Source of the DNA: an uncultured Gemmatimonadales bacterium
Lineage (GTDB): Bacteria; Gemmatimonadota; Gemmatimonadetes; Longimicrobiales; RSA9
Reading direction: 5' to 3'
DNA: 64,000 nt
Assembly (NCBI GenBank): GCA_963708135.1
Contig: OY970192.1
Span: 512,001-576,000, forward strand
This document shows positions 27,544 to 30,228 of the stretch, piece by piece. Positions within the stretch are counted from its first letter, which is position 1. Each line of letters opens with the position of its first letter. The notes under the pieces are model-generated. The model was not told the DNA's origin and searched no databases. It was given only the letters and a program-made list of their open reading frames with translations. The position numbers were made by a program, and so were the translations under genes.

Positions 27544-30228
27544 GCGCTACCCCACCTCCGCCTTCGACTACGAGCTGCCTCCCGGGCGCATCGCGCCGCG
27601 CCCAGCCGCGCGCCGCGACGAGAGCCGCCTGCTGGTGGTCGACCGCGCCACCGGCACGCTGACCCATCGCACCTTCCGCGACCTGCCCGAGCTCATCCCG
27701 CCGGGCGACGCCCTGGTCCTCAACGAGACCCGCGTGTTCCACGCCCGCCTGCTCGGCACCCGCGCCGGCGGCGGCGCGGCGGAGGTGCTGCTGCTGCATC
27801 CCTTCCCGGGCTCCCTTTCCGGAGAGTGGGAGAGTGGGGGAGTGGGGGACCCCGGGCCGGCCTCGCGGGGTGCGTCGGTTGCCGGGCCTCGCGACCGTGC
27901 CGGCGCGCCGACGGACTCCGACGACCCCGCGGATCCGCGGCGCGAGGGGGAGCCGGCGCGCGCCGGGCGCGGCGCCGCGTCCGGGGACCGGAGCGCGCCG
28001 GGGAGCCTGCCGCAGCTCCCACTCTCCCACTCGCCCACTCGGGGGGGGCAGGGTGGAGAGTGGGAGAGTGGGGGAGTGGGGGACCCCGGGCCGGCCTCGC
28101 GGGGTGCGTGGGTTGCCGGGCCTCGCGACCGTGCCGGCGCGCAGACGGACTCCGACGACGCCGCGGATCCGCGGCGCGAGGGGGAGCCGGCGCGCGCCGG
28201 GCACGGCGCCGCGTCCGGGGACCGGAGCGCGCCGGGGAGCCTGCCGCAGCTCCCACTCTCCCACTCGCCCACTCGGGGGGGGCAGGGTGGAGAGTGGGAG
28301 AGTGGGGGAGTGGGGGACCCCGGGCCGGCCTCGCGGGGTGCGTGGGTTGCCGGGCCTCGCGACCGTGCCGGCGCGCCGACGGACTCCGACGACCCCGCGG
28401 ATCCGCGGCGCGAGGGGGAGCCCGCGTGCGCCGGGCACGGCGCCGCGTCCGGGGACCGGAGCGCGCCGGGGAGCCTGCCGCAGCTCCCACTCTCCCACTC
28501 GCCCACTCGGGGGGGGCAGGGTGGAGAGTGGGAGAGTGGGGGAGTGGGGGACCCCGGGCCGGCCTCGCGGGGTGCGTGGGTTGCCGGGCCTCGCGACCGT
28601 GCCGGCGCGCCGACGGACTCCGACGACCCCGCGGATCCGCGGCGCGAGGGGGAGCCCGCGTGCGCCGGGCACGGCGCCGCGTCCGGGGACCGGAGCGCGC
28701 CGGGGAGCCTGCCGCAGCTCCCACTCTCCCACTCGCCCACTCGGGGGGGGCAGGGTGGAGAGTGGGAGAGTGGGGGAGTGGGGGACCCCGGGCCGGCCTC
28801 GCGGGGTGCGTGGGTTGCCGGGCCTCGCGACCGTGCCGGCGCGCCGACGGACTCCGACGACCCCGCGGATCCGCGGCGCGAGGGGGAGCCGGCGCGCGCC
28901 GGGCGCGGCGCCGCGTCCGGGGACCGGAGCGCGCCGGGGAGCCTGCCGCAGCTCCCACTCTCCCACTCGCCCACTCGGGGGGGGCAGGGTGGAGAGTGGG
29001 AGAGTGGGGGAGTGGGGGACCCCGGGCCGGCCTCGCGGGGTGCGTGGGTTGCCGGGCCTCGCGACCGTGCCGGCGCGCCGACGGACTCCGACGACCCCGC
29101 GGATCCGCGGCGCGAGGGGGAGCCGGCGCGCGCCGGGCGCGGCGCCGCGTCCGGGGACCGGAGCGCGCCGGGGAGCCTGCCGCAGCTCCCACTCTCCCAC
29201 TCGCCCACTCGGGGGGGGCAGGGTGGAGAGTGGGAGAGTGGGGGAGTGGGGGACCCCGGGCCGGCCTCGCGGGGTGCGTGGGTTGCCGGGCCTCGCGACC
29301 GTGCCGGCGCGCAGACGGACTCCGACGACGCCGCGGATCCGCGGCGCGAGGGGGAGCCGGCGCGCGCCGGGCACGGCGCCGCGTCCGGGGACCGGAGCGC
29401 GCCGGGGAGCCTGCCGCAGCTCCCACTCTCCCACTCGCCCACTCGGGGGGGCAGGGTGGAGATGGGCCGATCTGGGCGGCCATGGTCCGGCCGGGCGCGA
29501 AGCTCCGTCCGGGGAGCCGGGTCCACGTCGCGGAGGGGTTCGACGTCGAGATCCTCGATGTCCTGCCTGACGGGGCCCGGGTGGTGCGGCTGCACACCGC
29601 GCTGGCGCTCTCCGAGGCGCTCGCGCGGCACGGCCAGGTGCCGCTGCCGCCTTACCTCGGGCGGGGGCCGGAGGCGGCGGACGAGGAGCGCTATCAGACC
29701 GTGTACGCGCGGGCCGAAGGGTCGGTTGCCGCACCCACGGCCGGACTGCATTTTACGCGGGCTCTGCTGGAAACACTGGAGGCACGCGGCGTCCGCCTCG
29801 TGCGGGTGGTGCTGCACGTGGGCGCGGGCACGTTCCGGCCGGTCGAGGCGGAGGATCCGGCGGAGCACCCGATGCACGCGGAGTGGTACGGGGTCCCCGA
29901 GGCGGCCGCGGCGGAGCTGAACGCGGTGCGCGCGGCGGGCGGCCGCATCTGGGCGGTGGGGACGACGGTGGCGCGCACGCTCGAGACGGTGGCGGACGAG
30001 GCGGGTTGGATCGGCGCGGGCGAGGGGTGGACGGACCTGTTCATCCGGCCGCCGTACCGCTTCCGCGCGGTGGACCGGCTGGTCACGAACTTCCACCTGC
30101 CGCGCTCGACGCTGCTCATGCTGGTAGCGGCGCTGGCGGGCTACGATCTGACGATGCGGGCGTACCGCGAGGCGGTCGAGGCGGGCTACCGCTTCTACTC
30201 GTACGGTGACGCGATGGTGGTGGTCTGA
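27527..30228 (+). CDS. queA: S-adenosylmethionine:tRNA ribosyltransferase-isomerase interrupted by a 1637-bp tandem repeat insertion (frameshifted as assembled)
   Basis: N part [26 protein letters not shown] part [55 protein letters not shown]. Confidence 0.93.
27821..29457. repeat. Seven tandem copies of a 234-bp palindromic element (last copy 233 bp)
   Basis: Unit starts at 27821, 28055, 28289, 28523, 28757, 28991 and 29225; (GAGTGGGR)n left end, (CCCACTC)n right end, central CCGCGGATCCGCGG. Confidence 0.97.

Follow-up and report, generated by a model that had tools for sequence, protein, structure and literature searches.

The window analysed here is a 64,000-nt stretch of the genome of an uncultured, soil-type Gemmatimonadales bacterium (phylum Gemmatimonadota; genome positions 512001-576000; the source genome is called G000 below). 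The subject of this text is the housekeeping gene queA, which encodes a tRNA-modification enzyme of the queuosine pathway (tRNA preQ1(34) S-adenosylmethionine ribosyltransferase-isomerase), and the tandem array of a palindromic repeat by which it is interrupted. An earlier note on this DNA, made from the letters alone, had drawn attention to the array. Coordinates are those of the window unless they are marked 'genome'. The features at the locus are as follows.

27527..27820, + strand: N-terminal part of queA, 98 amino acids (aa), GTG start; matches PF02547 over 1-83 (92 bits) and NF001140 (92.4 bits), and corresponds to 15-96 of structure 1VKY
27821..29457, no strand assigned: tandem array of seven units, of which units 1-6 measure 234 bp and unit 7 measures 233 bp, from Tandem Repeats Finder and unit comparison; the units start at 27821, 28055, 28289, 28523, 28757, 28991 and 29225
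27824..27846, + strand: left arm of unit 1, three GAGTGGGN octamers, present in every unit
28018..28040, + strand: right arm of unit 1, complementary to the left arm and made of three NCCCACTC octamers; likewise present in every unit
29445..29451, + strand: run of seven G (G7) in unit 7, where units 1-6 have eight (G8; e.g. 28041-28048); this single-base difference shifts the C-terminal part of queA out of frame
29458..29462, + strand: GGAGA directly behind the array, a second copy of the five bases with which the unit begins (27821-27825), taken as a phase overlap or microhomology of the tandem duplication
29458..30228, + strand: C-terminal part of queA, 256 aa and stop; matches PF02547 over 86-322 (333.5 bits) and NF001140 (344.6 bits), and corresponds to 102-346 of 1VKY

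The array and the interrupted gene

Tandem Repeats Finder places the array at 27821-29466, with a period of 234, 7.0 copies, 98% matches and a score of 3194. The units are 98-100% alike and fall into four variants: unit 1 (A') departs from the consensus at positions 56 and 149, units 2 and 7 (B) at positions 89 and 106, units 3 and 4 (C) at positions 135 and 139, and units 5 and 6 (A) at position 149. The arms of a unit (27824-27846 and 28018-28040 in unit 1) are 23 nt long and 91% complementary, and a 17-nt G-rich spacer that includes the G8 run lies between the right-arm octamers and the left-arm octamers of the next unit. The whole unit is one long imperfect palindrome, 67-69% alike to its own reverse complement over positions 4-220. 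It is predicted to fold as a single hairpin, both as DNA (-93.7 kcal/mol, z -4.9) and as RNA, with a terminal stem of 24 bp (-168.2 kcal/mol, z -5.6). A scan of the array against Rfam gave nothing at the gathering score, the top match being a chance microRNA-like hairpin with 31.5 of 74 bits. The earlier note had described seven near-identical 234-bp units at 27821-29457, their order A',B,C,C,A,A,B and the palindromic nature of the element; the period and copy number, the unit comparison, which reproduces the order exactly, and the complementary arms with the single predicted hairpin bear out all three.

The C-terminal part alone identifies the interrupted gene, scoring 344.6 bits with the NCBIfam equivalog model NF001140, the cut-off of which is 324 bits. 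Joined together, the N- and C-terminal parts form a protein of 354 aa that aligns with its relatives free of gaps except in a variable loop and is matched by PF02547 from 1-83 and then 86-322, so that removal of the array does restore a QueA of ordinary size, as had been proposed. In an alignment with 23 relatives this QueA agrees with every invariant column (93 of 93) and with 38 of the 39 nearly invariant ones, and the nearest QueA among 5.8 billion proteins is just 73-76% identical to it. The insert falls between residues 96 and 102 of the Thermotoga maritima structure 1VKY, the turn between two strands of a beta-hairpin. Loop lengths were surveyed in 103 QueA proteins with a parsable loop, drawn from the 120 best database matches (121 proteins): the loop has 9 aa in 70 of them, 6-10 aa in 89 and 14-58 aa in 14. 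Its length also varies among the aligned genes of 28 relatives, three rows of which come from unpublished genomes on which no claim is based. The suggestion that the array sits in a surface loop of QueA is supported by the position of the turn in 1VKY, and the longer loops mark it as one that tolerates insertions.

The earlier note had further taken the array for an in-frame insert of 546 codons between the two halves of QueA. The assembled sequence lacks one base for this, so that the frame is broken: the array is 1637 bp long (3 x 545 + 2) rather than 1638 bp, because unit 7 has G7 and not G8 (29445-29451), and the two halves lie in different frames. The open reading frame (ORF) that starts with the N-terminal part (27527..29920, 797 aa) parts from the QueA frame 12 bases short of the end of the array, and the C-terminal part sits in a separate ORF, 27826..30228; a search for one uninterrupted reading frame through queA thus fails. 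In the database this gene is called as a fragment of 248 aa (P0002).

Throughout the array none of the six frames is closed by a stop. This is no evidence of selection, because the composition of the array (approximately 80% G+C) nearly suffices to explain it, openness in all frames being near the composition-only expectation. Codon log-odds in the array run from -0.06 to -0.56 per codon over the six frames, the best value being that of the queA frame, as against +0.42 in the queA flanks and +0.42 to +0.63 in neighbouring genes.

The gene might nevertheless be intact and translated, the G7 run being a homopolymer error of the assembly and the product a working QueA with a disordered insert of 546 aa at the tip of the beta-hairpin. 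With G8 as the true run, translation would give a QueA of 900 aa, the loop being rich in Gly, Pro, Ala, Ser and Arg. Each unit amounts to 78 codons free of stops, its queA frame scores best of the six, the gene keeps every invariant residue and its genome retains QueG, the next enzyme of the pathway. Relatives carry single in-frame inserts of up to 58 aa in this loop, one of them modelled as a disordered excursion (see below), and repeats are the hardest sequences to polish. However, the six other G8 runs are called alike in almost identical context, a stop-free frame is expected from composition when all six are open, and real genes reach much higher codon scores than the array. The 5.8 billion proteins include no QueA of more than 448 aa with an insert of this kind, and the longest loop seen in the survey has 58 aa. 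Among proteins of 438-1395 aa in that collection none resembles QueA with such an insert, and the sole match (P0001) is spurious, a called 'protein' of 1038 aa that runs through another array of the same genome, 225 bp x 11, between genes. A translated, working gene is thus a possible but doubtful explanation. P0002 and P0001 also illustrate the pitfalls that such arrays hold for annotation, a fragmentary QueA in the one case and a spurious protein in the other.

Growth of the array and state of the gene

GGAGA does stand at both ends of the array, at 27821-27825 and 29458-29462, as the earlier note had pointed out; its likening of the two copies to a target-site duplication does not hold. The test used 33 solitary elements of the same family, with boundaries slid by up to 12 bases and with left and right flanks taken from different elements as control, and the distribution of best lengths of flanking direct repeats was the same as in the mismatched control. 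GGAGA is moreover the start of the unit itself, and it recurs at the end of the array because a tandem array of 7.02 copies ends on the first five bases of its unit. It is better read as a phase overlap, or microhomology, than as a target-site duplication.

This result bears directly on the idea that a miniature inverted-repeat transposable element (MITE) inserted with a 5-bp GGAGA duplication and that the array stems from repeated insertion. The unit has terminal inverted repeats of the kind found in MITEs (the 23-nt arms), GGAGA is present on both sides and copies are dispersed in the genome. The 33 solitary copies, however, are without direct repeats beyond the control. The units are nearly identical within the array and differ from those at other loci, which points to local duplication, and no full-length copy with the same arms and a transposase was found in the PF01797 scan or among the arm pairs described below. 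Repeated insertion of a MITE is accordingly highly improbable.

The closest copy elsewhere in G000 is just 73% alike to the queA unit. The contrast with the 98-100% likeness of the units to each other points to a single long-resident copy that would have multiplied recently and locally within queA. The successive local duplications that the earlier note had proposed are supported by the same comparison, and the unit order fits several unequal exchanges. The note's picture of an array that had invaded the gene fits less well than amplification in place of a copy already resident there, given the intergenic arrays of 6-11 units in this genome and the loop insertions of relatives, both described below. 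Taken together, we consider the array to be a local sevenfold amplification of a gene-less hairpin repeat, a copy of which had occupied a permissive beta-hairpin turn of QueA beforehand, and which belongs to a family with other arrays; the probability of this reading is put at about 0.7. The amplification may have proceeded by replication slippage or by unequal sister-strand exchange. A first duplication could have used the 5-base microhomology GGAGA, and later steps would have involved whole units, which would give the mixed order of unit variants.

The reading presupposes that the array exists as assembled. It might instead be an artefact, inflated or mis-joined at a locus that truly holds fewer units or one, since tandem repeats are error-prone in assembly. 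Three soil-metagenome runs of one study, none of them RNA, were compared with 26900-30400 and gave no read on or bridging the array; one identical contig (run X1) covers 26900-27403 only, and the remaining matches are short conserved pieces of other organisms. On the other hand, a collapsed or inflated repeat would not give four unit variants in a non-periodic order. The source genome is a single contig of 5.45 Mb with 72% G+C, in which other arrays of 6-11 units are resolved, each with its own variants. In the fragmented genome of a relative, G002, queA is broken at exactly the site of the array, across two contig ends, as expected for a repeat there. The array is very probably real as assembled and an artefact correspondingly unlikely; given a real array, the balance leans towards a true G7 run.

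With regard to the gene, queA is a very young pseudogene, a slippage-prone locus or the carrier of one assembly error, because the flanking QueA residues are fully conserved. Either the disruption dates from the very recent past or queA continues to be used. As the missing G cuts the N-terminal part off from the catalytic C-terminal part in the assembly, this gene, the only standard queA of the genome, has more likely than not lost QueA activity in the sequenced state, and only recently. QueG is present in G000 and QueH was not found there. A second, divergent QueA-like gene (genome 1658897-1659892) has altered hallmark motifs and scores 152 bits with NF001140, against the cut-off of 324. It is not a specific replacement, because similar copies occur in some relatives as well (G012, G024, G010 and G016).

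Slippage also raises the notion of a high-frequency switch, in which single-base changes in the seven poly-G runs would turn full-length QueA on and off. G7 and G8 are exactly one slippage step apart, the three forward frames are open, so that a second slip in one of the seven runs, whichever it is, would bring the C-terminal part back with no stop in between, and queA is otherwise perfectly conserved. The poly-G run is, however, part of the repeat at intergenic loci too and so gives no sign of selection for switching, and with 546 extra residues the enzyme may be inactive whether the switch is on or off. A switch is very unlikely, though a shade less so than the MITE insertion considered above.

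One neighbouring gene was also noted:

27181..27543, + strand: small conserved ORF of 120 aa between a RuvB-like ORF and queA; its stop overlaps the GTG start of queA

The same small ORF stands in the same position upstream of queA in a relative, G006, and it matched no Pfam family.

The repeat family in the genome and its relatives

The queA unit belongs to a family defined by its octamer arms. The triple octamer GAGTGGGN, of the GAGTGGG type, occurs at 185 sites in G000 (93 + 92), and its reversed control at none. Clusters of at least two octamers (111 forward and 100 reverse) mark 103 loci, and 55 strict elements with a left and a right arm span 160-362 bp. Interiors of the family form sub-families approximately 70-86% alike. 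Besides queA, the following tandem arrays were found:

genome 3128550: 238 bp x 6 (Tandem Repeats Finder list)
genome 3232050: 225 bp x 11, the largest array
genome 4709237: 251 bp x 6
genome 3874905: 281 bp x 1.9, a short array

The first three lie between gene calls and the 281-bp pair inside one, although the ORF around that pair probably over-runs its true end. As at least three other large arrays exist, tandem amplification is a trait of the repeat family and not of the queA copy alone. The window itself holds one further, degenerate member:

51916..52183, no strand assigned: degenerate family member found by BLAST (genome 563916-564183), with an octamer cluster at genome 564158-564181

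The position of the loci relative to genes was judged with a crude codon-usage gene caller (4202 genes, 85% coding), which places 88 of the 103 loci between gene calls, 12 inside and three over an end. Because this caller counts the queA array as intergenic, the true number of intragenic loci is slightly above 12. A stricter test of flanking coding potential passed one of the 103 loci, which was not queA, and was discarded as too strict. Convergent gene ends are mildly favoured, with 23 of the 88 loci as compared with 350 of 2372 intergenic gaps genome-wide. In-frame copies were confirmed by Pfam in three other genes: a family 4 (GT4) glycosyltransferase, imuB and the PHP region of dnaE2. In the glycosyltransferase the element forms residues ~230-304 and the match to Glycos_transf_1 is taken up again at 306; this piece is absent from the best matches in G002 and G005. 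The imuB-dnaE2 mutagenesis cassette and its upstream region (genome 454561-458547) contain four GAGTGGG-armed elements in 4 kb: the first is upstream, the second at the start of imuB, the third in the linker of that gene and the fourth in the PHP region of dnaE2.

Some general observations on the genome may be recorded here. The octamer clusters are unevenly spread when counted in 250-kb bins, with 45 in 0.25-0.75 Mb, 59 in 2.75-3.25 Mb and one in 1.0-2.0 Mb. The GC-skew maximum, the putative terminus, is at approximately 1.11 Mb and the minimum at approximately 4.01 Mb. A role of GAGTGGG as a Chi-like signal was considered and rejected: there are 660 sites outside the elements as against 1000-2400 for many permutations, and the leading-strand share of 0.55 is that of other G-rich words. 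Two further regions, genome 3644391-3652716 and 5133540-5140399, have a period of 61 (and multiples) with a constant repeat of approximately 28-36 bases, and resemble arrays of clustered regularly interspaced short palindromic repeats (CRISPR).

Among 31 genomes, the GAGTGGG triple is confined to G000 apart from a single copy in G002, at a contig end; the other 29 relatives have none. G002 also has 12 double octamers, as against none for the control. The relative G006 carries a different triple, GATGGGGN (GATGGGG-type), at 102 sites (56 + 46), which is absent from the other 30 genomes, and at least 24 pairs of left and right arms lie 74-145 bp apart among the 100 matches listed. Its queA loop has an insertion of approximately 50 aa that is a single in-frame palindromic element, both ends of which consist of three GATGGGGN octamers. 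In an AlphaFold2 model of this QueA, built with 22 relatives (mean predicted local distance difference test score, pLDDT, 84; predicted template modelling score 0.81), the insert, which comprises residues 109-150 of the protein, has pLDDT below 50 and lies between strands 92-100 and 154-160. The queA loop of G018 contains three GAGAGCGG octamers.

The elements of G006 stand at the same places as those of G000 at all three intragenic sites compared, namely the queA loop, the dnaE2 PHP linker and the imuB linker. The shared imuB site is just before the conserved C-terminal domain, and the dnaE2 linker of G005 is without an insert. These shared sites either are old copies, the arms of which were renewed in each lineage, or reflect a few tolerated loops that were hit repeatedly. 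On a wider scale, other Gemmatimonadota have families of a like kind, the octamers of which differ but follow the form GANNGGGN: this loose pattern, three times over, has matches in 51 of 401 genomes of the phylum, each with its own octamer (e.g. GATTGGGC, GAACGGGN, GAAAGGGC and GAGCGGGC). The reversed GANNGGGN control gives hundreds of matches in some genomes, e.g. G382, G051, G106 and G172, which suggests families with other octamers there.

A possible link to protein-coding elements is provided by PF05635, a family described as Avd-like in the part of the source available (PMC10053308). G000 has 11 PF05635 matches, 10 of them above the Pfam cut-off, and a PF05635 protein of this genome has a weak bAvd match. 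At least three inverted 12-mers are shared between the 350-bp flanks of 7 of the 11 genes, compared with 2 of 300 control small genes. The short tandem repeats beside the PF05635 genes are of 6, 8, 14 or 15 bases, each gene having one type of its own. Inverted arms of their own 6-, 14- or 15-mers accompany the genes at genome 3278015, 4811485, 3390846, 5179345, 5253530, 3905303 and 1171687, and the paralogues at 1171687 and 4811485, which are 82% identical, both stand beside 14/15-mer repeats of similar sequence. An Rfam scan around the PF05635 genes gave no match. The highest score belongs to the gene at genome 3235004-3235399, which has the 225 bp x 11 array on one side and another element on the other. 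Its reciprocal best match in G006 is 62% identical, the next paralogue having 27 bits, and this orthologue is bracketed by GATGGGGN arms in an element of approximately 430 bp.

The octamer family probably has kin in small elements that carry a PF05635 gene between inverted arms, the arms being built of short tandem repeats, and the queA copy would be a gene-less derivative of the octamer-armed kind. A more far-reaching version makes the octamer hairpins the gene-less offspring of PF05635 elements of the intervening-sequence type, the arms being kept lineage-specific by a cognate protein or by gene conversion and copies trapped in loops being rewritten to the current octamer; the queA array would then act as a slippage switch or as an RNase III-sensitive throttle on queuosine. 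Rewriting of arms in each lineage would explain why G000 and G006 share sites and differ in their arms, yet the version as a whole is a long shot.

Several observations weigh against local amplification of a resident, octamer-armed family member, or against parts of the account built around it. Copy number and G7 run derive from a single assembly, as neither reads nor an independent assembly were found to cover the array. The unit length, 234 bp, is a multiple of three, and among the six frames that of queA scores least badly on codons; both facts fit a translated insert and chance equally well. A Y1/RAYT gene (PF01797; RAYT, transposase associated with repetitive extragenic palindromes) was found in none of five genomes (G000, G006, G002, G018 and G008), the control being positive in 6 of 14 reference genomes. 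No gene-carrying copy stands out among the five GAGTGGG pairs of left and right arms that lie 330-8000 bp apart, of which three (4.5-7.3 kb) hold three or four ordinary-looking gene calls each and two hold none. A transposase-bearing parent with the same ends was accordingly not found among these five arm pairs or in the PF01797 scan, other transposase families not having been scanned. The PF05635 gene at genome 3235004-3235399 is abutted by a degenerate left arm only and is not cleanly enclosed by two arms. Close homologues of the G000 PF05635 protein (E <= 1e-15) are present in just 4 of the 401 genomes of the phylum, and none is present in those with the largest GANNGGGN counts, e.g. G236, G262, G185 and G315. 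The connection between PF05635 and the octamers is therefore weak beyond two genomes, a lead rather than a rule. Both of the intergenic G000 elements with recognisable neighbours (2 of 2) are without a counterpart in G002, G006, G008 and G018. Finally, a QueA tree of 24 rows, from which the rows of G015, G016 and G020 were omitted, leaves one family (f1) as a polytomy and gives no choice between old and repeated insertion.

Comparison with known systems

Contingency loci with poly-G runs, in which the length of a homopolymer decides the frame, and intragenic tandem repeats of variable number, the unit of which is a multiple of three, resemble the queA array in both respects. The array differs in its host, a housekeeping gene for tRNA modification rather than a surface or restriction gene, and in its unit, a 234-bp palindrome.

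Among dispersed repeats, the octamer family shares with MITEs such as Correia, ERIC, BOX and RUP elements a non-autonomous size, terminal inverted repeats and dispersal, and BOX elements have an internal module of variable copy number. Unlike MITEs it shows no target-site duplication at the 33 copies, and no transposase-bearing parent was found in the searches described above. With repetitive extragenic palindromes (REP), their paired forms (REPIN) and the mosaic clusters they build (BIME) it has in common lineage-specific short hairpin repeats that are mostly intergenic, occupy hundreds of sites and form tandem clusters. It differs from them in arms of tandem octamers in place of a single REP palindrome and in in-frame copies within genes. 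A REPIN-RAYT system was rejected, as no RAYT was found in five genomes including that of G000, which is complete.

The 23S rRNA intervening sequence is, in the part of the source available, an element of approximately 430 nt with complementary ends that form a stem of approximately 28 bp and with an S23p/PF05635 ORF inside, and it is excised by RNase III (PMC4990558). The PF05635 element of G006, approximately 430 bp with octamer arms, the 7 of 11 PF05635 genes of G000 with inverted short-repeat arms and the predicted 24-bp terminal stem of the queA unit recall it. The queA copy is, by contrast, outside rRNA and without an ORF, and RNase III cutting in a messenger RNA would presumably destroy the message rather than be harmless. 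The array allows one to ask whether RNase III cleaves hairpin repeats within an mRNA in the way it does those intervening sequences, and the further question arises of what, if anything, PF05635 proteins do for octamer elements.

The closest parallel in behaviour is the Rickettsia palindromic element (RPE). RPE units are approximately 100-150 bp long and are read in frame in housekeeping genes; to our knowledge, in-frame selfish repeats are textbook matter for Rickettsia only. The available part of a review describes RPE as small palindromic repeats that are found between genes and in frame in unrelated housekeeping genes, where they are read as an extra peptide compatible with the fold; the word 'tandem' is absent from that text (PMC10969869). 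The octamer repeat likewise occurs between genes and inside genes, namely queA and those for the GT4 glycosyltransferase, imuB and dnaE2. The likeness to Rickettsia elements that the earlier note had pointed out is supported by the in-frame copies in these last three genes and by the in-frame single copy in the queA loop of G006. The differences are that the phylum is another one, that the ends are tandem octamers which change between lineages, and that in queA the repeat has been amplified to seven tandem units inside a gene, the frame being broken as assembled. The 234-bp palindromic unit is out of frame by one base there, and the other in-gene copies of the family are in frame.

Literature searches for the octamer strings and for palindromic repeats of Gemmatimonadetes showed nothing relevant to such repeats among the papers listed. 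In the literature searched we also did not find tandem-octamer ends that differ between lineages, the same loops occupied in two genera with different ends, or sevenfold growth inside the gene of a conserved enzyme. The queA array offers a system for asking up to what size a loop of a protein can take in foreign, disordered sequence. The repeat is a member of a little-described class of lineage-specific, octamer-ended repeats that occupy the spaces between genes as well as loops of proteins, and with it the in-gene behaviour familiar from Rickettsia is now seen in a free-living soil phylum.

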